From: Promethearchaeia archaeon
Lineage (GTDB): Archaea > Asgardarchaeota > Lokiarchaeia > Sigyniarchaeales > SOKP01
DNA: 64,000 nucleotides
Direction of reading: 5' to 3'
NCBI GenBank assembly: GCA_046483985.1
Contig: JAWOCD010000006.1
Location: 32,001-96,000, forward strand
Shown here: positions 6,130 through 48,269 of the stretch, piece after piece
Layout of the letters: the number at the start of each line of letters is the position of its first letter
Position numbering within the stretch: the stretch's first letter is position 1
Made by a program: the position numbers and the translations under genes
The notes under the pieces: model-generated
Database searches by the model: none
What the model was told of the DNA's origin: nothing
The model's input: only the letters and a program-made list of their open reading frames with translations

Positions 6130-7104
6130 TTAAAGGATACAGAGAGCAAGCTTCTTTTTATCTGTTAAAGAATCCACATTCAGCTTGGGGTGTTCTTTAA
6201 GATATTCATCAATTGGGTTTCCATTTTTAAAGATTTCAGAGAACTTCCCTTCAAAAATTTGATATATATTCCGATTTCGTGAAATATAGGAACCAATCAG
6301 CTGATTGGACGGATCAAAACTGGGTTGGATCAGTTCTCCTTGAGTTAAAATAAAATTACTAAAATTCTCTTTTGTAATATGAACTTTGATCTCTTTAATA
6401 GAGAATTCTATTTTATTAATAAATGGACTCAATATTTTAAACTCCTTGCTCTGTAGGAGGTTTTCAAGAATTTCATCGTTAAAAATGATATGGATTATGA
6501 GGGTCTTAAGATCATCTTTAATCTTTGTTATTCCCTCCAGTATTACATTTTTTAATTCGTCCGTCAAGGAATCTTCTGAGTCCTCCAATATCTTTGCAGC
6601 TAAAGGGTTCTCATAACGAATACCCACCGCAATCTTGGTATGAGTATTATTTGGAACGCTAAACGGATAAAGAATCTCATCCAGACTCTCCCACCTGTAA
6701 TTAATGAATTCAACTGGTTCTTGCTCGGGCAATTGTTCTTCTTCTAAATTATAGTTTTCAAAAAAGTTTTCGAGTGTTTCCTCGCATCGTTTTTTTTCTT
6801 CTTGGAATTTTATCCGTAATTCTTCGATTCGGTTGTTAACTATTTTTTGCCAGAGGGGAATCACAGGTGTGTTGAGATGAATTTTCATAGGACGATCATA
6901 AATTTGAACCAGTTCTAAATCATTTAGCACCGAAGCAATTTTATAACCACGCTTTAATGTTAAATCATATTGATTACAGACTTTTTTCAGATTCTCTATT
7001 TTCTTATATAATAAGAGATGATGATAAATACGAGATATACCCTTCTCAATTATTCCTATCGCATCGAACAGAGAGTTTAAAGGTAAAAAGTCGCTGTCAT
7101 CCAT
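6130..7104 (-). CDS. Hypothetical protein, probable divergent TrmB-like regulator
   Basis: N-terminal wHTH-like region (SRIYHHLL...KRGYKIASVLNDLELV), coiled coil and a C-terminal domain, in TrmB-like order; 13 nt downstream of the Rab-like gene. Confidence 0.55.
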   Translation of the reverse strand: MDDSDFLPLNSLFDAIGIIEKGISRIYHHLLLYKKIENLKKVCNQYDLTLKRGYKIASVLNDLELVQIYDRPMKIHLNTPVIPLWQKIVNNRIEELRIKFQEEKKRCEETLENFFENYNLEEEQLPEQEPVEFINYRWESLDEILYPFSVPNNTHTKIAVGIRYENPLAAKILEDSEDSLTDELKNVILEGITKIKDDLKTLIIHIIFNDEILENLLQSKEFKILSPFINKIEFSIKEIKVHITKENFSNFILTQGELIQPSFDPSNQLIGSYISRNRNIYQIFEGKFSEIFKNGNPIDEYLKEHPKLNVDSLTDKKKLALCIL

Positions 7105-7117
7105 ATTTATCCACCTA

Positions 7118-7666
7118 CTATGCTGTCTCTACATTTTCTCGTTCTTGTATCCGCTCCAGTGTGAGTTTAGTAAGCAGATCAAATGATTTATTCACATTTA
7201 TATTCTCTTTTGAAGATATTTCTGAGAATGCAGCAAAATCATGCTTTTCACTAATTTGGATACCTAGCTCACGGGGAACCTCTCGTTGATTTTCGGCTAA
7301 ATCTAATTTTGCACCAATTAACATAATTGGTATATCTCCGCCCTTGGAACGAACAATATTTGCCCATTTAGGAATATTATCTAAAGTTGATGATCGGGTA
7401 ATATCATATAATAAGAAAGCCGCATTTGCGCCTAACACATATGTAGGGAGAAGAAACCTAAATCGCTCTTCTCCTCCTATATCCCAAATTTGAAGCTTTA
7501 TTTTTAGATCATCAACTATATTAACACGAACATGAAAATCTACTCCAATAGTAAGCTTTTCGCCAGGATTAAAAACTTGGTAAACATAACGTTTGGTAAA
7601 ACTGGTTTTACCCACACTTGCATCACCAAGTAAAAGTACTTTTAGAGTATAATCGTAGTTTGGCAT
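7118..7666 (-). CDS. Rab-like small GTPase (eukaryotic signature protein)
   Basis: GDASVGKTS (G1), TIGVDF (RabF1-like), KLQIWDIGGEERF (G3), GAKLD (G4 variant), SSK (G5); no C-terminal prenylation Cys. Confidence 0.93.
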   Translation of the reverse strand: MPNYDYTLKVLLLGDASVGKTSFTKRYVYQVFNPGEKLTIGVDFHVRVNIVDDLKIKLQIWDIGGEERFRFLLPTYVLGANAAFLLYDITRSSTLDNIPKWANIVRSKGGDIPIMLIGAKLDLAENQREVPRELGIQISEKHDFAAFSEISSKENINVNKSFDLLTKLTLERIQERENVETA

Positions 7667-9094: not shown

Positions 9095-9667
9095 TCAAGA
9101 TATAGCTAAATTTTCTTGAATCTCTTTCCTTATAACAGAATTAGATTCTCTTTCACAATGCTTTTCCAATAGATGTTTAAAATTATGATGATTCACCAGA
9201 TTATGAGAAATTAGGGCTCTAATTAAGGCATACCGTACAGAATCATCCGGATCGGTTAAAAAGGGGGTTATAAGTGGTAAATTATTTAGTATTTCTTTCT
9301 TATCGAGTTGCATAAAGGATCTTGCACGAATATTAAAATCTGGATGATATAACTTAAATAAATTGGAATTCACCTTCTCGTCTTTTAAGATTTCTGAGAG
9401 TTTCTTGATTAAAGAGATATGATATTCATCTGATTTGGAATGAAGATTGAGAAATTTTTCAACCGCTGTCCCTGCCTTTTTTCCAATTTTGAGCAAACTC
9501 TCTAAGGATATAAACACATGTTCTGATAAATTGGTCTTTAAATTAGATAATAACCTTTCAATAATTTTGTCGCCAACCTCTGAGACTTGCATTAATTGCC
9601 AATTCTGTTCTTCCAAGTTTCTATTATCCCTTAAATAATTCAATTTTATTCCTCTATGATCGGTCAT
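9095..9667 (-). CDS. HEAT-repeat protein
   Basis: LYHPDFNIRARS and LTDPDDSVRYALIRAL HEAT-like units. Confidence 0.75.
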   Translation of the reverse strand: MTDHRGIKLNYLRDNRNLEEQNWQLMQVSEVGDKIIERLLSNLKTNLSEHVFISLESLLKIGKKAGTAVEKFLNLHSKSDEYHISLIKKLSEILKDEKVNSNLFKLYHPDFNIRARSFMQLDKKEILNNLPLITPFLTDPDDSVRYALIRALISHNLVNHHNFKHLLEKHCERESNSVIRKEIQENLAIS

Positions 9668-9891
9668 AATTTTGTTGATTACTAAAAAGTTAACCTATTT
9701 TATTTATATTATTATTAAAGCAAAAATATGGAAACTGAGCTTTAATTATTCCATTAATAATTCAAAAAGATTATGTAATCGACAGAAATATGTGAAATTC
9801 AATTGAATAATCTTTTCAACATTTTCCATCCACGATAAATTAATATGAATGGTTTGTGAATGGTATATTAAGAAATTCTTATAGAATGTTT

Positions 9892-11367
9892 CTATACTAA
9901 AAATTCTCTATTATTTTCTTTATCAAACATCACTTTTTGGGAGCTAGTGAAATATTTTCCATAAACTTCCTTATTTTTAATCATTTCAATAATAATTTCC
10001 TCTACGAATTCCAATTTTTTCGAGGGGATATTACAATACTTCCGTATATCTTCCAAACTCATCAAAGTCTCTTCCTTGCTTAACCGCTTCACATTCTTTT
10101 TGATCAAATCTTTCAATTTATCACTTTTTTCCTTTTGAACTCGTTTCTTCTGCTTAAGAAAGATAACTCTTTCATTCGCTTTCGAAATTTTATCCGCAAT
10201 TAAATTAATATAATGGGTATCTCCAATGGTTTTTGCAAACTTCTGCGCTTTTTCGTATTTTCTGATGGCCTTTTCAGGCTTATTAAGCATTTCATCTCCT
10301 GATTTAATGGAACGGTTAATTGATCGATAAATTCCAATATTCGTAGCAATATCCTCAATCTTCTCAAGAGCAGTATCTAATTCTTCCTTAGATTGAGCGT
10401 AATTTTTGAGTTTTTCTAGTTCTGTCATTGCGTAATCAAACTTCTCTTCGTAAATAAGGTCTTTAATCCTCTGTATTTCGTCATAGAGTGGAGAACCAGG
10501 AACTGTAGAGCCAAGATTCACAGATTTCAACTCTTGTTTATCTAATTTCTCATAATTCATCGGCGTAACAGCCGGTTTATCAAGTTCTTTGGCTATTGTT
10601 TTTATGGATTCCATGTGAGACCTTGTCTTTTGTTCAGGTGCTAAGGATTCAATTTTAGAGGGCTTTTTTTGGGGTTTTGGTTTTTTCTGTTTTTTTGATT
10701 TAGTTGCATTTGGGTTAGGGGAAATTGAAAGCGATTTTTTGTCAGAAACTCCTTTTACCTTTAATTTTTTGGGGGAAGTATTTATTTTCTTCTTAATAGT
10801 CTCAGCTTGGGTGGGTTTTGCTCCATTTTTTGATTCCTTTGGTTTTTCTTTTTCTTCCAGTGATTTTTTCGATGGAGTTGTCTCTCCAATTAACGAAGAA
10901 GGAATTGCCACACCATTCAATGAGGATTTCTCTTCTTCTTGCTTTAAAGACTCATTTTGTAACGTTGATCTCTCCCCTCTTCCTTGTTCTTTTTCTTCGG
11001 AAGGGTTTATGAAAATTCTTATGAACTTTTTGCGTAAAATCGTAATTCCTGAAAGAATAAATTGATCTATATTGATTTGTCCATCGGAGAATTGTTCCCA
11101 TGCACCATAAATCCTATTAAAAAAGGAATCCAAATTATTTTTAAGATAATTTTCTAAATTCCCTTGTTCTTGCAGTTCCTCCACTTCTTGCCGAATTGTG
11201 GGTCCAAATTTGTCTATTAGATCATCAACTGATTCATTTCCTTCATTACAAAATTCCGTAACACAGCGTTTCTGGGTAACCTCTTCAAGATCTTCTCCCT
11301 CTTTTTTTTTATCATCAGACGATTTCATTAACTCATTAAATATATCCTCTGGGTCTTTATCTGGCAT
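9892..11367 (-). CDS. Hypothetical protein with a low-complexity middle, helical repeats and a C-terminal PCI-like winged helix
   Basis: C-terminus MSLEDIRKYCNIP...VEEIIIEMIKNKEVYGKYFTSSQKVMF resembles a PCI wHTH, preceded by TPR-like helices. Confidence 0.6.
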   Translation of the reverse strand: MPDKDPEDIFNELMKSSDDKKKEGEDLEEVTQKRCVTEFCNEGNESVDDLIDKFGPTIRQEVEELQEQGNLENYLKNNLDSFFNRIYGAWEQFSDGQINIDQFILSGITILRKKFIRIFINPSEEKEQGRGERSTLQNESLKQEEEKSSLNGVAIPSSLIGETTPSKKSLEEKEKPKESKNGAKPTQAETIKKKINTSPKKLKVKGVSDKKSLSISPNPNATKSKKQKKPKPQKKPSKIESLAPEQKTRSHMESIKTIAKELDKPAVTPMNYEKLDKQELKSVNLGSTVPGSPLYDEIQRIKDLIYEEKFDYAMTELEKLKNYAQSKEELDTALEKIEDIATNIGIYRSINRSIKSGDEMLNKPEKAIRKYEKAQKFAKTIGDTHYINLIADKISKANERVIFLKQKKRVQKEKSDKLKDLIKKNVKRLSKEETLMSLEDIRKYCNIPSKKLEFVEEIIIEMIKNKEVYGKYFTSSQKVMFDKENNREFLV

Positions 11368-11504
11368 GAAAATTTAGAACCTCTCTTTATTTGTTTAAAA
11401 AATTTCCCAATTATATAAAAAACATAAGGTTTACTTATAAAAACTTTTGTTAAAACCCTTATAATAATTTTAGATTCTGAAAAAACAAAATTTAAGGATT
11501 GATT

Positions 11505-12371
11505 TCACGAAAAAAGCTCTTCAGCGTTATTATAGAAAATGTCCCTTTTTTGGTCATCTGTTAGGGGGAGTGAATGAATTTTATTGACTTCCAGAGAGAG
11601 AGGATTAGTTATAGGAGCATCAGAACCGAAAAGAATCCTTTTACTTCCCACCATTTTCACTAAGCTAAAGATTGCATAGGGAATACTGCAAGAAGTCTCA
11701 AAAAAGACATTTTCAAATTTTTTCAAACTTAAGCCAACATCAATCCCATATTCCATGGCATATCCTGCATGACCCAGAATAATCCGTAATTGGGGAAATT
11801 GTTTTGCTAGTTTAGCAATATCTTTAGTCATTACCCCGCGAAAATAAGAAACTTTTGGCGTTGAATGTATAAAAAGAGGGATTTCCTTATCGTAATCTTG
11901 CATAAAGGAAACCAGTTCTTCGATATCACGGGGAATCTTTAGCAAATGAATACCAGAATGAATTTTAACTCCTCCAAATCCCGCTCTAAAATGGTCTTTT
12001 AGTATTTCGTAACTTTCAGCTTTTTTATCGTCATCGATATTTGGATTAAACCAAAAAAACGGTATGAATCTTTCGGGTACTTCTTCTACGATCTCTTTTA
12101 CATCAGCATGATCTAATTGTCCCTCTGGCATCATTCTTTTAAATTTTTTAAATGCTTGGCTTACCTTATTCCCTTTAGTGTCTGTCTTATTTCCTTTCTT
12201 ATCTGCATACACCTTAGAACTTGCAGCTCGATTCGTCGTGGTTAACGCAGCCTTTTTGATATTGTATTTATCCATATATTCGATTAAACTCATTTCAGAA
12301 GGGAGGAAGTTCCCTATAGTATGTAAATGTGCATCAAAAATCCCTAAATCTTTTTTCATTACTTTACACAT
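11505..12371 (-). CDS. Amidohydrolase family protein (Amidohydro_2-like)
   Basis: FDAHLH, GVKIH, LFIHS, ILGHAG, FFETS, LFGSDAP. Confidence 0.9.
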   Translation of the reverse strand: MCKVMKKDLGIFDAHLHTIGNFLPSEMSLIEYMDKYNIKKAALTTTNRAASSKVYADKKGNKTDTKGNKVSQAFKKFKRMMPEGQLDHADVKEIVEEVPERFIPFFWFNPNIDDDKKAESYEILKDHFRAGFGGVKIHSGIHLLKIPRDIEELVSFMQDYDKEIPLFIHSTPKVSYFRGVMTKDIAKLAKQFPQLRIILGHAGYAMEYGIDVGLSLKKFENVFFETSCSIPYAIFSLVKMVGSKRILFGSDAPITNPLSLEVNKIHSLPLTDDQKRDIFYNNAEELFS

Positions 12372-12374
12372 CCC

Positions 12375-13193
12375 TTAAGGTATTAGAGAATTGAAATTAT
12401 CATAAAAAACTTGTTGCGTAATTTTTTCATTGAGATTAAGCATTCTGATTTTATTAATTTCGATATCTGGATTGGTGGCTGCGGGCGCGTCTGAACCATA
12501 GATGACCCTGTCTGTTCCCATGGCCTTTATTAACGTCATTATACCGTAAGGGATTGAACAAGAAGTTTCAAAATATACATTAGAAAAATTTCTGAAATAA
12601 TATAATAGATTTATTGTGTTTTCCATTGTAAAAGCAGCATGACCAAGAATAAGTTTAAGGTCTTCATACTTTTTGGCAAGATCATAATAACTTTTAACAC
12701 GGACGGGGTTTTGGAAAAAAAACGGTGAACCAGAATGAATAAAAAGAGGTAAATCATGGTCTATACAAAATTCAGCTAAGGAGTACAAATCTCCGGGTAT
12801 GGATAACTGGTCTACGAAAGTTTGCGTTTTAACCCCTTTAAATCCATATTTTTCGATATATGTCTTCAGTACATTCCAATCTTGCTCTTCAGCAGTTGCT
12901 GGATTAAACCAAAAAAAGCCGATGAGACGATCTGGATGCTTTTTTACTAATTTTCTAACTGTCTCATGGTTATATTGCTTTGGTTGGAAATGTCGTTCTA
13001 ATTCATTTTCATCATTTGGATTTCCATTACTGGATGCTAAAAATGCCTTTAAACTGGCATTTTGATTCAATGTCGTGATCGCTGCTTTATCTATTTCATA
13101 TCTGTCCATATATTCCAATAGAGATTCATCGCGGGATTTAAATCGTCCTATGTAATGCATATGCGCGTCAAAAACCTTAGATCCATCAATCAT
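12375..13193 (-). CDS. Amidohydrolase family protein, tandem paralogue
   Basis: FDAHMH, LFIHSG, ILGHAA, YFETSCSIPY, IYGSDAP. Confidence 0.9.
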   Translation of the reverse strand: MIDGSKVFDAHMHYIGRFKSRDESLLEYMDRYEIDKAAITTLNQNASLKAFLASSNGNPNDENELERHFQPKQYNHETVRKLVKKHPDRLIGFFWFNPATAEEQDWNVLKTYIEKYGFKGVKTQTFVDQLSIPGDLYSLAEFCIDHDLPLFIHSGSPFFFQNPVRVKSYYDLAKKYEDLKLILGHAAFTMENTINLLYYFRNFSNVYFETSCSIPYGIMTLIKAMGTDRVIYGSDAPAATNPDIEINKIRMLNLNEKITQQVFYDNFNSLIP

Positions 13194-13272
13194 AATGAAA
13201 AATATTCTGTAAGAATAATTACATAGTTGAGCATTTCAATTTGGTACTTAATACATTGGGAAAAAATATCGT

Positions 13273-13677
13273 CTATTCTCCTTGGATTTGAATATATACG
13301 TTCCTTGAACGAGGGCCATCATATTCTGTGAACATAATTCCTTGCCAAGTCCCAAGTACTAATTTCCCTTCATGTATGAGAACGAACAATGAGGGACCCG
13401 TGAGTGTTGATTTAATATGCGCATCAGAATTTCCTTCCCTATGAGCAAAGCTTGACTTTTTTGGAACTACTTCTTTTAGATGAGAAATAATATCCTTTTT
13501 TACTGAAGGATCGGCATTCTCATTAATTGTTATGGCCGCCGTGGTATGCGGTACGAAGATTCGACATATTCCCTCGATAACATTTGCCTCATCAATAAGC
13601 TCTTGGATTTGGCTGGTAATATCCACTAACGTTTCTCGTTTTGAAGTTTTTACTCTAATCTTGTTAAATACAATCAT
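13273..13677 (-). CDS. yjbQ: YjbQ/UPF0047 family protein
   Basis: HTTAAITINENADP, HREGNSDAHIKS, LGTWQGI, EYDGPR. Confidence 0.93.
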   Translation of the reverse strand: MIVFNKIRVKTSKRETLVDITSQIQELIDEANVIEGICRIFVPHTTAAITINENADPSVKKDIISHLKEVVPKKSSFAHREGNSDAHIKSTLTGPSLFVLIHEGKLVLGTWQGIMFTEYDGPRSRNVYIQIQGE

Positions 13678-13858
13678 TTTTTCTCATTAATTTAATATAG
13701 GGGTTTCCCGATAAAATAAAATTGTTTTTATTTTCTTAAATATTTTTCTACACTATTTTTACTCCATAAATGTAGATCGAAATCCAATTTTTATTGTTTT
13801 TATTTATTGAATCCCCTCTTCCATTAACTTAAGTCCTAAAAAATAATATTTCAAAATT

Positions 13859-14629
13859 CTAGACTTCTAAATCAAACTTCCCGTGCTTTCCCTTTCCTCG
13901 TCTAAACTCCTTACTCCCCTCCAGATATTCTTCGCTGCTTAAAGTCTTTAATCCATGTTTGAATTCATTTTTTAGAGCATCTTGCATATCCATTCCAAAT
14001 TGCTCATAAACAGACATCCTGTCATGTTGCATACAAGTTTGAGGAAATTGGGCGATCTTTCTAGCAAGTTCCTCGGCCTCTTGTCTGGAAGTACCTTCTT
14101 CTACAATTCTATTAGCTAATCCCCACTGGTAGGCTTCTTTTGCCGAAACAGGTCTTCCAGTTAAGATCATATCCATTGCTCTGCTTAATCCAATAAGACG
14201 GGGGAGTCTTATAGTCCCCCCATCAATTAATGGAACTCCGAATCTTCTGCAAAAGACGCCAAAAATAGCATCATTCTCCACGACTCTAAGGTCGCACCAG
14301 CAAGCTAATTCCAAACCTCCAGCAACAGCGTATCCCGCCACCGCCGCAATAATTGGCTTTGAAAGCTGCATTCGGGTTGGACCCATAGGACCATCTCCAG
14401 TCGGATCTATTCGATTCTGGTTTTCAGTACCTATAGATTTCAAATCTGCTCCAGCACAAAAAGTGCCATTTGCCCCCCATAAAACGGCTACTAATGCATC
14501 GTCATCTTTCTCAAATTTCCGAAATGCATCAGCAAGTTCCTGGGCGTTTTTTCCATCAATCGCATTTTTCACTTTTGGATTGTCCAGTATAATGGTATAT
14601 ACTGGGTAGTTTCGCTCAATTATTATCAT
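13859..14629 (-). CDS. Enoyl-CoA hydratase/isomerase (crotonase family)
   Basis: FCAGADLK, YAVAGGLELA, FGVPLIDGGT. Confidence 0.93.
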   Translation of the reverse strand: MIIIERNYPVYTIILDNPKVKNAIDGKNAQELADAFRKFEKDDDALVAVLWGANGTFCAGADLKSIGTENQNRIDPTGDGPMGPTRMQLSKPIIAAVAGYAVAGGLELACWCDLRVVENDAIFGVFCRRFGVPLIDGGTIRLPRLIGLSRAMDMILTGRPVSAKEAYQWGLANRIVEEGTSRQEAEELARKIAQFPQTCMQHDRMSVYEQFGMDMQDALKNEFKHGLKTLSSEEYLEGSKEFRRGKGKHGKFDLEV

Positions 14630-15249: not shown

Positions 15250-16338
15250 TTATTTTTGGAATTTAAGCATATCTGCCATCTCAACAAAACTACTGGTTCG
15301 AATGAGTGCTGCTTTTAAGAATTGGAATCCGATATCATAGGTGGAACCATCTCCACCAATGTGAATAACATACGGAATTTCTCCATCAAATATTCCCTTC
15401 TTTTTCTGGATCTTATAGGAAGTTGAAATTGCATCAGCTACGGTCGCGCCAGATTCAAAAAGATGATGCATCCATGGAACTCTCCATGAGCTTACATTGT
15501 CTTTTGATGTGGAAACTTCTGAACAACTGGTGTTGTTGACATAGATAAAATTATCTTCAGAAACTTGGGTAGCCGCTGTACTAAGCTGGAATAAAACCAT
15601 TCCCGCACCGCACCCAGGACATAAACCATGACCAGGTAATAGATGTTGTTGGGGTTTAAGCTTTTTCTTGTTGATTTTGTATAATTCATGCGGTTTTTCT
15701 TGCTTGAAAGTCTCAATTAACCGTTTCAACTTTTCATTACGTCTCTCTGTGTAGTAAATGATCCTATTTATTTCTTTTTCTCGGAATCTTGGTTTAAAAA
15801 GATGCTTAAACCGTCCCATTGAGCGTAGATATTCCACAAACTTATCTTTATCGATGTCTAAACCCCGATAATAAGAGAAACTGGGAATTCCATCCTCTAC
15901 TCTAATCGTATATAAGGGCCAATAACCAGAATCTGTTGCTAATTTTGAAATTTTCACCGCATCTCCAGCATCATGTCGCCAGCCCCGCATACAATCAGAA
16001 TAAGCTTGAATAAAAGCAGAGCCATTAGATTTAAGTGCATCCATGACCTTACCCATAAAATCGTTTGAATAGGCGGGATTCGCAGTAGCCAGAAACATTT
16101 TTTTCTGACCGTAAAATGCAAAAGGAGTAACTAAATCTTGTTTAATCCCTACTTTTCCAGGAATTTTTTTTCCTGCCGGTCCCGTTGTGGTACTTGCGTA
16201 TGGGGGCGTTCCTCCGCTTTCTTGAATACCAGTATTCATAAAAGCTTCATTATCGTAGTTTAAGAAGAGAACATTACTCTTTTCATCCCGTGCTAGGATA
16301 TCATCCATTTTAATAACTGTCGTTTCTTTACTTACCAT
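15250..16338 (-). CDS. porB: Pyruvate/2-oxoacid:ferredoxin oxidoreductase beta subunit, circularly permuted
   Basis: All PorB motifs present but in swapped order: YDNEAFMNTGIQ (aa 28-39), DCMRGW, YWPLY, GRFKHL come first; PGHGLCPGCG (235-244), TSCSEV, VPWMHHLFE, GGDGSTYDIG (328-337) come last. Confidence 0.9.
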   Translation of the reverse strand: MVSKETTVIKMDDILARDEKSNVLFLNYDNEAFMNTGIQESGGTPPYASTTTGPAGKKIPGKVGIKQDLVTPFAFYGQKKMFLATANPAYSNDFMGKVMDALKSNGSAFIQAYSDCMRGWRHDAGDAVKISKLATDSGYWPLYTIRVEDGIPSFSYYRGLDIDKDKFVEYLRSMGRFKHLFKPRFREKEINRIIYYTERRNEKLKRLIETFKQEKPHELYKINKKKLKPQQHLLPGHGLCPGCGAGMVLFQLSTAATQVSEDNFIYVNNTSCSEVSTSKDNVSSWRVPWMHHLFESGATVADAISTSYKIQKKKGIFDGEIPYVIHIGGDGSTYDIGFQFLKAALIRTSSFVEMADMLKFQK

Positions 16339-16339
16339 T

Positions 16340-17563
16340 TTACATGTTCACCCCATAAATTTTATCCTTTGTTTCACGTACACCTAAGTACATGTATAGT
16401 CGTCCATCCATATCATCCACCTTTTTCATCTTCTTCTTCGCGATATCAAACTCATCTCTGGTCACATCTCTTCCTCCTAATCCTACAATAAAGGAGCGGA
16501 AGATTGTGCCCAATGGATAAAGCGCTGTCGCAACCGAGCTCGAGAAGGGTGGTAATAAATTATTCAAGGAATCTACTTTTTCGAGTATCATAAGTTTTTC
16601 TAATCCATATTCTTCGACTATATCTTGAAGTTCCTCATAGGGGAATGGACGAAAAGTGCGAATTTTAATTAATCCGACATCTTGATTTTCAGTCATCCAG
16701 CTGATAATATTTCCGCACATAGATCCCATCGTGACAAACGCCATATTGGACGAATTATCCAAATTATAAGTTTCAATTGTATTATATTCTCTCCCCGTTG
16801 CTTTCTCGAACCGATCAAATGCATCTCTCATCTTATCTAAAACATCTTCCTTATCAACGTCTAAGCTTTTACGAAATTCTTGAAAATAGTCTGGTGTAAC
16901 GATTCCTCCCCATGTCCCTGGTTTTTCGGGAGTAATGGTATGTCGAGTTCTTTTCGGTGTTAATTGTCGAACTGTTTCATCGGGAATCAATGTGAGTTTT
17001 TGTACCGAGTGAGATATAATAAAACCATCATGAACAAACATGGTTGGAAAGAGAGTATCCTCTGAAATCATGACGGAAAGTATGGCTGCATCGTAGGTTT
17101 CTTGAACGTTCTCGCTCACAAGAGTATTCCAGCCATAATCAACGATAGTATATTCCCAATAATTCCAAATTGAAAGATTGGGTGCATTGAATGCACGGGC
17201 AGAGATCATCATCGTAAGCGGTACTCGCCACCCTACCGCCATTGGTAAGGCTTCTTGCATTAATAAATATCCTTGGGATGCCGTTGCAGTAAATGTCCTA
17301 GCTCCAGCAGCACAAGCTGCGGTGGAGTAACTCATTGCAGCTAATTCAGACTCTACATTGACAAAAGCAGCATCCAACCTTCCTTGGTGTACCACATCGC
17401 TTAAACCCTCAACGGATTGTGTCTGAGGAGTGATTGGAAAAGCACAGACTACATCGGGGTCTGTCTGAGTAACTGCCCCTGCAACTGCGTAGTTTCCAAT
17501 CATAGCTGTTTCTATTGGCTCTTTAATTTCTTTAAAAAATAACTTCATAGGTTCTATACTCAT
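16340..17563 (-). CDS. porA: Pyruvate/2-oxoacid:ferredoxin oxidoreductase alpha subunit
   Basis: AFPITPQT, VESELAAMS, RTFTATASQG, HDGFIISH, RTFRPFP, GLGGRD. Confidence 0.93.
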   Translation of the reverse strand: MSIEPMKLFFKEIKEPIETAMIGNYAVAGAVTQTDPDVVCAFPITPQTQSVEGLSDVVHQGRLDAAFVNVESELAAMSYSTAACAAGARTFTATASQGYLLMQEALPMAVGWRVPLTMMISARAFNAPNLSIWNYWEYTIVDYGWNTLVSENVQETYDAAILSVMISEDTLFPTMFVHDGFIISHSVQKLTLIPDETVRQLTPKRTRHTITPEKPGTWGGIVTPDYFQEFRKSLDVDKEDVLDKMRDAFDRFEKATGREYNTIETYNLDNSSNMAFVTMGSMCGNIISWMTENQDVGLIKIRTFRPFPYEELQDIVEEYGLEKLMILEKVDSLNNLLPPFSSSVATALYPLGTIFRSFIVGLGGRDVTRDEFDIAKKKMKKVDDMDGRLYMYLGVRETKDKIYGVNM

Positions 17564-17576
17564 TATATTCTACCTC

Positions 17577-18569
17577 CTATTCCTCTTCCTCTGGTACGGC
17601 ACATGATGCCGGACCTTGTTTTAATTTTTTACTTAAAGCGTTAACCGGACAGATATTTACGCAATTCAAACAACTCTTGCAATGTTTTCTGTCAATACCA
17701 ACCATATGCCATAGGCCATCTTCTCCTTTTTCTCGGAGAATGGCAAAATCTGGACAAATAAACCAGCACTGACCGCAATCCGTACATGTTTCTTCGTCCC
17801 AAATGATATCATATTCTCCCCAAGAACCCGTGTTTACTTGATCACTCCCTACACGTATAATATCCGAATCGGTATACCAGACACCAGCTTTATCTAATTC
17901 CTTAAATCCAGGTTTTCCCAGGGCGACTTGTTGCCATTCAACTTTTGTGTCTTCCGCAAAATTTGGTTGATATTTCGTTTCATAAATGCATACTTCTTCC
18001 ATAGCTTTTTTCACTGCTTCAACATTTTTACTGGCAATCTTATCTTTAAAGCGTCTCATTATAGCTTCTGAGAGTTGCTTTAGTGTGAAAAGATTAGACA
18101 CTTTTAGTAACGCCCCAAGGATAATTGTGTTAGTAATATTTCGTCCAAGAATGTCAAGAGCAATTCGGGTTGCATCTGCCGTTGCGACATTGATATTTTT
18201 TCTGCCTACAATATCTTGAATTTCCTTTTGATTCAATACCGTATTTACGATTAACCACCCGCCTTCCGGCATACCAGCTGTGACATCTACCTCACCTAAT
18301 AAAGAAGGATCTAAAACAGAGACAAATTGAGGTGCATAAACTTGCTCGTTACTCCGAACTAAATCATCATTATGTGAAAGGCGTACATAACTCTGAGTTG
18401 GACTGCCCATCCTTTCAGCTCCAAATTTAGGCTGACAAACTCCATATCCAGTAAATGCTTCAACACATAGATTTGACGCCGTAACACCTCCTTGACCGCC
18501 ACGAGCGTGAAATCTTAAATTCACCTTATGTTTCTGGAGAATTTCCTCCATTTCCTCGAATGTGTACAT
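17577..18569 (-). CDS. Fused 2-oxoacid:ferredoxin oxidoreductase gamma-delta subunit
   Basis: RFHARGGQGGVT, FGAERMG, NTIILGAL (gamma), followed by TGSW and two CxxCxxCxxxCP motifs (delta ferredoxin). Confidence 0.92.
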   Translation of the reverse strand: MYTFEEMEEILQKHKVNLRFHARGGQGGVTASNLCVEAFTGYGVCQPKFGAERMGSPTQSYVRLSHNDDLVRSNEQVYAPQFVSVLDPSLLGEVDVTAGMPEGGWLIVNTVLNQKEIQDIVGRKNINVATADATRIALDILGRNITNTIILGALLKVSNLFTLKQLSEAIMRRFKDKIASKNVEAVKKAMEEVCIYETKYQPNFAEDTKVEWQQVALGKPGFKELDKAGVWYTDSDIIRVGSDQVNTGSWGEYDIIWDEETCTDCGQCWFICPDFAILREKGEDGLWHMVGIDRKHCKSCLNCVNICPVNALSKKLKQGPASCAVPEEEE

Positions 18570-44762: not shown

Positions 44763-46499
44763 ATGAAAATAACGCAGAGTAAACTGAAGTTAATTTTAAA
44801 CTCAAGAGAGTTTAAGAGATGGATATTTGAAAAAAGATGGTTTGGGAACAAATCATACCTCTCCGATTTTGATTTTTCAATTTCTTTATCACATTTCGAA
44901 GATTCAGGGGATTTATTTTTATGTATCATAAGAGTGGAAAAAGGAGAATATTTTCAAGAATATTTTATCCCTTTCGTTTTTTCAAATAGTTTGGAAGAAA
45001 TCATCTCAAGTAACGGAAAACAGAAAGAAATTGAAAGCTTCCAAGAGGCTCATTCATTTAACTTGAATATTGCTAACTCCAAGGATAGAAAGAATTTATC
45101 ATCGGTATTTTTAATAGAAGGAGAATATACTTTAAAATATTGGAGTAAGATATTTTCATTTTATGGCGATATGTCGAAATATCCTAAATTAGATATGAAA
45201 TTTCGGACTTATTCTAAAAGCGATTTAAGAACGATAATTAAGCCAATAATTTCTCCCATTGCAGGGAAAAAACGACGATTTTCCGATAAAAATTTAATAA
45301 AACAATTAGGGAATGGGAATACAACTAATCTATTATTTAAGTTTCAGATTCCATCAAATATGAAAGATTCTAAGGGTAATTCCTACTTATTTAAATGTTA
45401 TAAGAAATATGAGAAAAATGTTGAGCCTCGTGTACTTCGGACGCTAAAGAAAAACAATTTTAAGGGATCTGCTTCTATATTTGGAGAAGTTATATATAAA
45501 AATATTACGTTAATCTGCATCCTTGAATACCTTCAAAATGATGGAAATATTGGGAGTATTTTTTGGACTGAATTGAATGAGTTTTGTGAATTCCTCATTA
45601 AAAACAATAAAGATTCGCCAAATCATAATACGAATGAAGTTTTAAGAGAAACTATGAATCAAATCTGTGATACGAGTTTTGGAATTAGTCAGCAAATTGG
45701 AGAAGAGATTAAAAAAATGCATAAAGCATTAATCGATAAAAACAAGAAGGATTTCAGCCAAATTGATATAAAGAAATCAATATTCTTAAAAGATCTCTCA
45801 ATTGCTTTAGAGGACTTAAATAATCAAATACGTAATGAGTTTGAAAAAAAGCGTTGGAATTGTTATAATTTTTTGAATCAGTCTCAATTAATCCAGCTAA
45901 TAGAGAAATCTAAAGAATATTTCCATCAAAAATTTAGAGAAACTGAAGAAGATCATATTAAGGTTCAGCGAATACATCAAGATCTTCATATGGAACAGAT
46001 TTTATACAAAGAATCTAAAAATGGAGGCTGTGTAGATAAACCCGAGGATTATAATTATTATTTTTTGGATTTTGAAGGCGATCCTCAATTTTCATCCAAG
46101 AAAAAACAAAATAAATTCCCAATTGAGCGTGATTTAGCAACATTAGTCCGTTCATTGGGTTATATTAAATTTAATACCATTATTAACAAATTGGACTCAA
46201 TTATATCGCAAGAAAAAACAGAGTATGGAAAGATGGGATGCTTATATCATGTTATATTTAGGAAAAAGCATTTAAAAGAACTAAAAGATCTGAAAAAATT
46301 AAAAATAATATTAGATAAATGGGAAAAAAGGATAAAAGAGGCAATAATTCAATCTTTTGTTCTTGATAAAGATTTACTGGAGATCTTTAGAATTGAAAGA
46401 ATCTTAAGAGAATTAAACTATGAGATTAAATATAGACCAAAAGATATGATGATTCCGATATTTGGATTAAAGGAGTTTTTAGAGAAAAGGATTTGTTAA
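44763..46499 (+). CDS. Maltokinase (Mak/Pep2)-like kinase
   Basis: KRWFGNK N-terminal cap, MHKAL, QRIHQDLHMEQIL, LDFEGDP, RDLATLVRS, ELNYE..YRP. Confidence 0.82.
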   Translation: MKITQSKLKLILNSREFKRWIFEKRWFGNKSYLSDFDFSISLSHFEDSGDLFLCIIRVEKGEYFQEYFIPFVFSNSLEEIISSNGKQKEIESFQEAHSFNLNIANSKDRKNLSSVFLIEGEYTLKYWSKIFSFYGDMSKYPKLDMKFRTYSKSDLRTIIKPIISPIAGKKRRFSDKNLIKQLGNGNTTNLLFKFQIPSNMKDSKGNSYLFKCYKKYEKNVEPRVLRTLKKNNFKGSASIFGEVIYKNITLICILEYLQNDGNIGSIFWTELNEFCEFLIKNNKDSPNHNTNEVLRETMNQICDTSFGISQQIGEEIKKMHKALIDKNKKDFSQIDIKKSIFLKDLSIALEDLNNQIRNEFEKKRWNCYNFLNQSQLIQLIEKSKEYFHQKFRETEEDHIKVQRIHQDLHMEQILYKESKNGGCVDKPEDYNYYFLDFEGDPQFSSKKKQNKFPIERDLATLVRSLGYIKFNTIINKLDSIISQEKTEYGKMGCLYHVIFRKKHLKELKDLKKLKIILDKWEKRIKEAIIQSFVLDKDLLEIFRIERILRELNYEIKYRPKDMMIPIFGLKEFLEKRIC

Positions 46500-46514
46500 A
46501 TTTTTAATGAAAAA

Positions 46515-47156
46515 TTATTCTTTTTCTCCCTCTTTTAGCCTTGCAAACTCAAAAGCATAATGTGTTGCATCTCTTCTTACAGGCTGTATATCGTCATAAT
46601 AACTAGATCTTGTTCTTCGACTATCCTCTATATTCTCCTCAGTATAGTCCTTATCAAAATCTCCCTTATTACCCATGGTAATTAGACGCCAAACAAAAGA
46701 TTCTACGAACTTTTTGGTGCCAAATTGTTTAGGAAATAGAATATATCCCTCATTATCTATGAACTTAGGAAAGAACCCGTACGCTTGACACATATCCAAT
46801 TTGAATTCAATATCTGGCAATTTACCTTGGAGCCTCGCTAAATCATTAATAAACCGGCCTAAATCCTCTCCCATATCGATCTGAGCGATTTGATCCATAT
46901 TTTCCAAAAGATCCTTAAGATAATTTCTTTTCAATAGTAATAATTCATTTTTATTTAATGAAGTTATTGAATTATAATCAATTACAAAGAATCTTGCTAA
47001 ATTTAAGTAATTTCTTATTAGAGCAGCTTTAGATAATTGTTTAGAATCACTGATTTTATTTAATCTCTCATCCAATTCGGCATCAATCCGAATCGTAATG
47101 ACCGCAGACTTCTTCTTATTCTTCTTTTTCTTTTTTTTGTTATTAGACGGTGTCAT
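46515..47156 (-). CDS. Ribbon-helix-helix (CopG-like) domain protein
   Basis: VITIRIDAELDERLNKISDSKQLSKAALIRNYL. Confidence 0.8.
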   Translation of the reverse strand: MTPSNNKKKKKKNKKKSAVITIRIDAELDERLNKISDSKQLSKAALIRNYLNLARFFVIDYNSITSLNKNELLLLKRNYLKDLLENMDQIAQIDMGEDLGRFINDLARLQGKLPDIEFKLDMCQAYGFFPKFIDNEGYILFPKQFGTKKFVESFVWRLITMGNKGDFDKDYTEENIEDSRRTRSSYYDDIQPVRRDATHYAFEFARLKEGEKE

Positions 47157-47945
47157 AAGCAGAAAGAAGGTAATCTTAATTTTTATGTAAGTTTTGTAAC
47201 TAAATAAAATCTTATGTAATAATAAATAATAAAAATTTATAAATGATTGTGTTATTTTAGATCCAAATGTTCATTTTTTGATCTTCTATTTATTATCCAG
47301 ATAAAGACTGAATATTAATAATCTCAGTTCTTATTGGCTAAAAGTGAAAAATATTCCTTAGAGTGGTTAACAAATCTCTTAGAAATCTCTAAAGCTGTAT
47401 AGCTTATATACTTTAGGTATTTTAAAAAAAAATTAGTATAAAGAGCTTATTTTCATGTAAATATGGGGTATGTTGCCTCTCTAGACAACGAAGATTAATT
47501 ATCCTCAAATTTATTTTACTTAAATATCTATTTATTTAATTTAATTTAAGTCTATCTTAAGATGCATTTTTGTCATCATTTGTAATTTTATGATTAATAT
47601 GTAACTCTAATATATAATACATTACTATCGAAACAAAAATAATATATAAAAAGATGAAATTCTTTAATTATTTTGTAAAGATTTGAGTTTCAATCTGAAA
47701 ATTGAGTAATTTTAAAGGGTTGCTTTAAAAAAAAGTGTGAATATATAAGTGAATAAACCCCTAAAAGGTTAGAGATACTTAATAAAAAAAATAATTGAAA
47801 ATTATGGCTAATAATCAACAAAAATTTGAGGAAATACGAATCAAAATGGAAAACAAGGATTTGAAACTTTTAACTCATAGTTTTTACAATATATATAAAA
47901 AATAATAATAATCAGAACAAAATTAGAAACAGAAGGGAAAAAAAA

Positions 47946-48269
47946 ATGGAAATGAGCGAAAGTGGGATAATTGGATTAGAATTAATGAATAAAGATGAGT
48001 CCATCATGGTAGAATCCGATGAAGAAATTGAACTGATTGCAAAAGCTCTTTCGAGTAAGACACGACGTAGAATACTCACCATGGTTCAGCGAGAACCTAT
48101 GGATGTTTCCAAAATAGCAAGTTTAATGAACCAAACAGAAGCGAATATTAGTGCACAAGTAAAAAAGCTTCATAAAGCGAATTTAATTACTTGCGATTAT
48201 AGTTCAGGTCGGCATGGCGTAAGAAAGATCTCAAAGCTGAAATATAATCGATTAGTTCTAAAATTTTAA
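47946..48269 (+). CDS. ArsR-family HTH regulator
   Basis: KALSSKTRRRIL...MDVSKIA...ANISAQVKKLHKANLI...G.RK. Confidence 0.88.
   Translation: MEMSESGIIGLELMNKDESIMVESDEEIELIAKALSSKTRRRILTMVQREPMDVSKIASLMNQTEANISAQVKKLHKANLITCDYSSGRHGVRKISKLKYNRLVLKF

Follow-up and report, generated by a model that had tools for sequence, protein, structure and literature searches.

The described systems closest to this locus belong to the 2-oxoacid:ferredoxin oxidoreductase (OFOR) family. PorB of the four-subunit archaeal pyruvate:ferredoxin oxidoreductase (POR), as represented by Methanosarcina acetivorans (9BT4 chain C; NCBIfam NF008819), shares with the beta subunit described here all blocks of domain VI, the GDG motif, the motif Asn, and the four cluster Cys residues, and the gene order gamma, delta, alpha, beta is also held in common. 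The oxalate oxidoreductase of Moorella thermoacetica (5C4I) likewise has three chains with a fused gamma-delta subunit, and its beta subunit is homologous to the present one (E 1.2e-43; NF045790 match). Variants in domain order are known within the OFOR family, namely, the III-I-II alpha subunit of two-subunit enzymes and the one-subunit PFOR, in which whole domains have been shuffled or fused (PMC13768988). This article, which reviews the diversity of PFOR and dates from November 2026, contains none of the terms 'permut', 'Asgard', and 'Loki'.

Order of the halves and position of the break

The window, a stretch of 64,000 nucleotides from the genome of a Promethearchaeia archaeon, carries on its minus strand an operon in the order gamma-delta, alpha, beta, which together encodes domains I, II, III, V, and VI of OFOR (Table 1). 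The final gene, beta, is a single unbroken ORF of 362 aa, in agreement with the initial annotation, which had named no strand. The residue numbers given there for D29-N30, C116, C240, C243, C272, and GDG 329-331 proved correct when the ORF was read again.

The order of the halves was deduced from alignments to canonical beta subunits. Residues 226 to 347 of the permuted beta corresponded to residues 3 to 115 of 9BT4_C (E 1.4e-16) and residues 22 to 193 to residues 118 to 282 (E 1.3e-27), and 5C4I_C gave swapped diagonals likewise. The two offset diagonals that had been predicted against an ordinary PorB were thus obtained with the Methanosarcina protein, and a full-length collinear match was not found. 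Two homologous blocks are therefore present in swapped order in one chain and the parent is covered once, which defines a circular permutant. The swapped 9BT4_C blocks place the break within 2 to 3 residues, between the post-GDG helix and the strand terminating in D29-N30. The same alignments bear out the proposed splitting of the cofactor motif over the chain ends, with GDG near the C terminus and D29-N30 near the N terminus. N30 precedes GDG by ~300 residues, whereas in the canonical order the motif is contiguous and its Asn follows GDG by ~29 residues.

The canonical beta-subunit profile covered residues 20 to 214 and 224 to 352, and so only approximately residues 211 to 221 are new sequence. 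A charged linker had been proposed for residues 185 to 231; a joining linker does exist, but most of that region is old sequence, as residues 185 to 210 are the ordinary C-terminal helix and residues 222 to 231 the ordinary N-terminal segment, leaving ~11 new residues. New extensions of ~19 aa at the N terminus and ~15 aa at the C terminus are also present, the latter being 12 to 17 aa long in 113 of 114 permuted beta genes.

Table 1. Features of the permuted operon and its surroundings (window positions; dN/dS by segment)
Feature	Position	Strand	Remarks
Beta subunit (domain VI), circularly permuted, 2-oxoacid:ferredoxin oxidoreductase (P0001)	15250..16338	(-)	362 aa
New N-terminal segment, aa 1-19	16282..16338	(-)	Strand 6-10, helix 11-15, ends L15-x-R17; dN/dS 0.11
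Canonical C-terminal half, aa 20-210	15709..16281	(-)	D29-N30-E31 (Mg/diphosphate), N35, ThDP loop (aa 31-65), C116 as cluster ligand, last helix (aa 187-210); dN/dS 0.06
D29-N30, second part of the GDG...N ThDP/Mg motif	16249..16254	(-)	Invariant in 114 genes
New linker, ~aa 211-221, old C terminus to old N terminus	15676..15708	(-)	Modelled as a strand; F211, P216, Y220 conserved; dN/dS 0.15 (aa 206-228)
Canonical N-terminal half, aa 222-347	15298..15675	(-)	C240-x-x-C243, C272, GDG 329-331, helix to invariant R347; dN/dS 0.04
G329-D330-G331, first part of the ThDP/Mg motif	15346..15354	(-)	Invariant in 114 genes
New C-terminal tail, aa 348-362, and stop	15250..15297	(-)	Extends the GDG helix; dN/dS 0.06
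Alpha (domains I-II)	16340..17563	(-)	407 aa; stop codon 1 base ahead of the beta start
Fused gamma-delta (domains III and V)	17577..18569	(-)	330 aa; POR domain and two Fer4 motifs
Two tandem Amidohydro_2 genes, UPF0047 gene, enoyl-CoA hydratase gene	11505..14629	(-)	Downstream of the operon; the UPF0047 and enoyl-CoA hydratase genes also lie downstream in locus L151
Protein with C-terminal PCI domain	9892..11367	(-)	491 aa; PF01399, E 7e-06; eukaryote-like signature
HEAT-repeat protein	9095..9667		Adjoins the PCI-domain gene

The explanation considered probable is a working, naturally permuted beta subunit of a pyruvate-type OFOR, fixed once in the ancestor of the Lokiarchaeia, for which we infer cofactor binding, activity, and substrate. 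The chain would have been cut in a turn at the surface, after the post-GDG helix and before the strand that runs to Asn30, with the ~11 new residues bridging the former termini. Upon refolding, Asp330 and Asn30 would again hold Mg and the ThDP diphosphate, and C240, C243, and C272 from the end of the chain would join C116 from its start in again holding the proximal [4Fe-4S] cluster. The permuted beta would pack on alpha, and the three-chain enzyme would decarboxylate a 2-oxoacid, most likely pyruvate, to an acyl-CoA with the reduction of ferredoxin.

Descent and substrate of the permuted operon

In a tree for which the permuted betas were re-ordered, they formed a single clade (100/100) on a stem of 0.76 to 1.04 changes per site. 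Supported branches separated this clade from the two canonical paralogues of the host (the comparison made for descent from POR rather than from VOR-like or KOR paralogues), and relative to the POR betas found in the other Asgard classes it had no supported position. The long stems, including 1.21 changes per site for alpha, leave the tree position and the substrate unsure. A candidate sister group with long branches (P0354, P0356, P0357, and P0144) fell with the permutants for beta and not for alpha, and this placement was treated as long-branch attraction. Other Asgards have the canonical operon of gamma, delta, alpha, and beta. A close canonical POR beta was not found in 159 of 161 Lokiarchaeia with one Asgard beta as the query, where the best matches listed were at ~44 to 50% and those placed in the tree were separate paralogues. 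On the simplest reading, the permuted operon would stand in for the Asgard POR, with the long branches leaving other options.

Further OFOR genes were observed in addition to the permuted operon. Elsewhere, the host genome has two canonical four-gene OFOR operons (G000:C4, ~9250 to 12580, and G000:C101, ~44850 to 48000), which fall in a separate clade; in addition, C74 carries a distant alpha and C60 a distant beta. Two of the 161 Lokiarchaeia (L149:335-6119, G189; L150:10671-16454, G245) have, next to the permuted operon, a second, canonical POR-type operon with the layout gamma, delta, alpha, NuoE-like and NuoF-like genes (assigned by eye), and a beta fused behind an Fe-S domain. This operon resembles an NADH-coupled 2-oxoacid oxidoreductase and was probably acquired, its alpha being 34 to 35% identical to the alpha of the permuted operon.

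The alpha subunit retains T45, E73, and R123; in characterized OFOR, the Thr and Arg bind the carboxylate of pyruvate and the catalytic Glu activates the cofactor (PMC5020499). The motif FPITP has F for the usual Y, and the helix after R123 (residues 133 to 141) is rewritten in all permuted-operon alphas, with x-W-E-aromatic standing where D-H-x-D is usual, one residue inserted, and 2 to 3 residues deleted. None of them retains an Asp that 37 of 38 canonical alphas share, and the helix Arg is also lost. The region after R123 is the 'plug loop' in oxalate oxidoreductase and governs substrate entry (PMC5020499). Oxalate chemistry itself is not indicated, as FPITP rather than YPIRP was found in all alphas read.

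These features could be taken to mean that the permutant is real and active and that its job has changed, so that it prefers a 2-oxoacid other than pyruvate or differs in regulation, the alpha helix having been rebuilt concurrently. Such a change would be consistent with the long alpha stem, with the step from YPITP to FPITP and the rewritten helix in the plug-loop region, and with the additional canonical POR-type operon that two relatives carry beside the permuted one. We nevertheless consider it unlikely, since the carboxylate-binding Thr and Arg and the catalytic Glu are kept, the best family matches of the operon are pyruvate synthase PorA/PorB, and most genomes have no other close POR orthologue. 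A bolder version of the same idea, which we offer as speculative, is that the opened ThDP motif, the extended GDG helix, and the rewritten alpha helix together form a new active-site entrance that arose when parts of the sole POR-lineage enzyme in the Lokiarchaeia were rebuilt together. If so, the new entrance would alter substrate range, direction, or oxygen sensitivity, and the enzyme shown as the hub of pyruvate metabolism in cultured Asgard archaea would behave unlike the standard POR.

Conservation, predicted fold, and origin

The permuted beta genes had a dN/dS of 0.063 over 21 non-overlapping pairs, and the values for each segment were low (Table 1). Residues D29, N30, E31, N35, C116, C240, C243, C272, GDG, and R347 were invariant in 114 genes, so that all four Cys of the [4Fe-4S] cluster are kept, as the initial annotation had stated. 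The residues that mark an OFOR beta are thus in place: GDG with an Asn for Mg at the ThDP diphosphate and CxGC with two further Cys. The role of the motif Asn in binding this Mg is described for OFOR (PMC5020499). Alpha lay directly upstream of the permuted beta in 111 of 120 loci and was possibly cut off in six of the seven loci without alpha, and each of the 78 loci that showed gamma had it fused to delta. The results of a promoter scan, using a scan not designed for archaea, were at chance level.

Several loci departed from this pattern. The permuted beta at L109:5564-6613 (G033) is solitary, with no alpha or gamma-delta nearby, and adjoins a probable ribonucleotide reductase gene (by eye). 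At L101:1738-2790 (G163) the protein stops two residues past the invariant Arg without the usual tail, which may be real or a sequence error. The residues after GDG are S-T-V-N-I-G instead of the usual S-T-Y-D-I-G in L110, L111, and L112 (G032, G038, which is MK-D1, and G171). In G189, part of the 3' end of the permuted beta gene is present twice (L151:4050-4404 versus 6933-7284; 76% DNA identity), the incomplete copy lying two genes downstream of the full one.

In MK-D1, the permuted operon was matched by synteny to DSAG12_00808-810; after it come three hypothetical genes, then a gene of the Ras family, and then one for a formiminotransferase. It is entered as pyruvate:ferredoxin oxidoreductase, with no remark on the swap, in the published pathway table (Imachi 2020, PMC7015854); the assignment to EC 1.2.7.1 in this strain is putative and by annotation. 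RPKM values were 286, 372, and 314 for the three genes, 150 to 204 for most neighbours, and 285 to 384 for the two canonical operons (PMC7015854), and as RPKM is flat genome-wide, these counts lend weak support to transcription. From the dN/dS values, the invariant ligands, the conserved operon, and these RNA counts, the permuted beta appears to be functional.

The AlphaFold2 monomer was a single compact chain (pTM 0.87, mean pLDDT 82) in which the linker was a strand with pLDDT 90 to 95, a new strand was formed by residues 6 to 10, and the GDG helix was extended to residue 354. The modelled halves matched OFOR structures (6ciq, Z 11.3, rmsd 3.6, 173 aligned; 6n2n_B, Z 4.7, rmsd 2.7, 116 aligned). 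The ThDP loop (residues 31 to 65) had a pLDDT of ~40 compared to ~97 throughout the canonical control, the permutant alignment being far less diverse (column identity of 72% versus 38%). The model of permuted beta with alpha domain I scored 0.68, against 0.00 for the best control. Of solved pairs, 58 of 80 attained that score, and of mismatched pairs 2 of 110, figures that carry over only roughly to a permuted beta-alpha pair. At least 97% of contacts were shared between runs, the partner pLDDT was at least 86, and residues 339, 340, and 343 of the GDG helix touched alpha residues 71 to 75, beside the catalytic E73. Since the like complex 9BT4 is already solved, this result may reflect memorisation by the model and indicates likeness rather than binding. 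The models predict that the core fold re-forms and packs on alpha domain I.

A non-catalytic or decaying paralogue, kept structurally or drifting, could account for the low-confidence ThDP loop of the monomer model, for the lack of the gene in some complete genomes, and for the two canonical paralogues in the host. This was judged to be very improbable, as a dN/dS of 0.06 and fully invariant cofactor ligands across sequences down to ~52% identity argue against decay and the loop with low confidence belongs to the best-conserved parts of the protein.

Natural circular permutants in other protein families are explained by duplication and trimming, and they typically have a short linker joining the old termini, new termini in a surface turn, and a retained fold. 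The present order may likewise have arisen by tandem duplication and in-frame fusion followed by trimming. The L-x-R that closes the canonical GDG helix occurs at both ends of the chain (L15-x-R17 and L345-x-R347), which hints at such a history. Residues 1 to 19 resemble a short motif of canonical N termini, a pattern picked after looking that was found in 87 of 113 permutants, 12 of 44 canonical N termini, and 4 of 714 background windows and that is likewise a slight hint, as is the best match of residues 222 to 229 to canonical position 1 (z 3.0). Profile scans of the new N terminus gave no clear best match for remnants of the origin. Duplicated intermediates were sought among 102 longer proteins and the best 150 library representatives, with none found. 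Four half-length canonical proteins starting near the break, considered as split-gene intermediates, were rejected as they begin at or within 10 bases of a DNA end, three of them at a contig edge.

Alternatively, the gene could be permuted and its product restored to the canonical order by RNA circularisation, protein splicing, or cyclisation, and it is relevant that some canonical PorB proteins carry an intein just past the motif Asn. However, ~15 residues separate the intein site from the break, the extensions at the termini measure only ~19 and ~15 aa, and pairing of the RNA ends (−29.0) is not stronger than in shuffled sequences (mean −30.3). The intein being off-site and the RNA ends unpaired, splicing-based repair is unlikely, and purifying selection acts at the protein level on the linker and on both tails; we give product repair in any form hardly any credence. 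The inteins were observed in P0122-P0138, P0143, and P0226, which are canonical-order PorB with a LAGLIDADG intein of ~375 aa inserted between the ThDP motif and TGIQ, directly adjoining both. The labels of the intein-bearing proteins include Heimdallarchaeaceae and Aerophobetes, and an 852-aa PorB labelled Altiarchaeales also has an intein.

Distribution and comparison with known systems

The permuted order was sought in Asgard genomes and related assemblies. With a junction-spanning query, the permuted form was found in ~130 of 161 Lokiarchaeia genomes, counting the present one, and in all seven families (107/134, 12/14, 1/1, 4/4, 1/3, 2/2, and 2/2 genomes per family), with a few matches partial at contig ends. 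These include five single-contig genomes (G032, G033, G038, G171, and G199), and Helarchaeota-labelled genomes were among the distant carriers. The best 120 homologues are all in the permuted order. The permuted beta is missing from several genomes that are 92 to 100% complete (G010, G020, G024, G192, and G216) and is therefore not essential everywhere.

Among 239 Asgard genomes outside the Lokiarchaeia, no permuted beta was found except in G115, where the 2.8-kb contig is 93.5% identical to a Loki locus and was taken to be a mis-binned Loki contig. Apparent spread to other phyla was likewise discounted: five records labelled Thor-, Hod-, Hermod-, and Odinarchaeota and Nanopelagicaceae share coordinates with family-f1 genomes (G207, G214, G211, G209, and G265; loci L035, L038, L040, L081, and L083). 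Only two full-length matches among the best 150 of 1.84 billion library representatives were permuted, both of them Loki-type; a distant independent permutation elsewhere would score below the matches listed.

A mis-join at the linker is refuted for practical purposes by the recurrence of the junction in ~130 independently assembled genomes, with 42 to 81% identity across it and five of them single-contig chromosomes, and by the constant base composition across the junction. The initial view of the gene as a natural circular permutant is supported by the swapped alignments, by more than 120 collinear homologues, and by the single-contig genomes. Its suggested value as a lineage marker holds at the level of the class Lokiarchaeia, all seven families being represented and only the contaminant contig lying outside, with some near-complete members lacking the gene.

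The chemistry is likely unchanged, which limits interest; the arrangement should be surprising to the ThDP specialist and useful as a class marker. GDG...N is conventionally presented as an unbroken signature of ThDP enzymes, and here an archaeal class appears to run an enzyme of central metabolism with the motif opened. As a rare discrete character, the order unites the Lokiarchaeia, genomes labelled Helarchaeota among them, and exposes records that are mis-binned or mislabelled. The swapped order also places the gene below family cut-offs (213 bits on NF008819 versus a cut-off of 405), and many of the homologues are named 'hypothetical protein' by NCBI, so that metabolic reconstructions can miss POR. 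As the cultured MK-D1 carries the permuted operon, the hypothesis is testable.

In a literature search that did not extend to subscription papers, no published description of a permuted PorB or of any permuted ThDP-binding domain was found. Both the type of rearrangement and the enzyme are already known, and the permuted PorB order itself is apparently new to the literature. Compared to PorB (9BT4), the halves are swapped, GDG...N is split, the 11-aa linker and the terminal extensions are new, and gamma and delta are fused. In contrast to the present enzyme, the oxalate oxidoreductase (5C4I) has a beta subunit in the canonical order and has YPIRP where FPITP is found here. The OFOR domain-order variants move whole domains, whereas here the cut is inside domain VI and passes through the cofactor motif.
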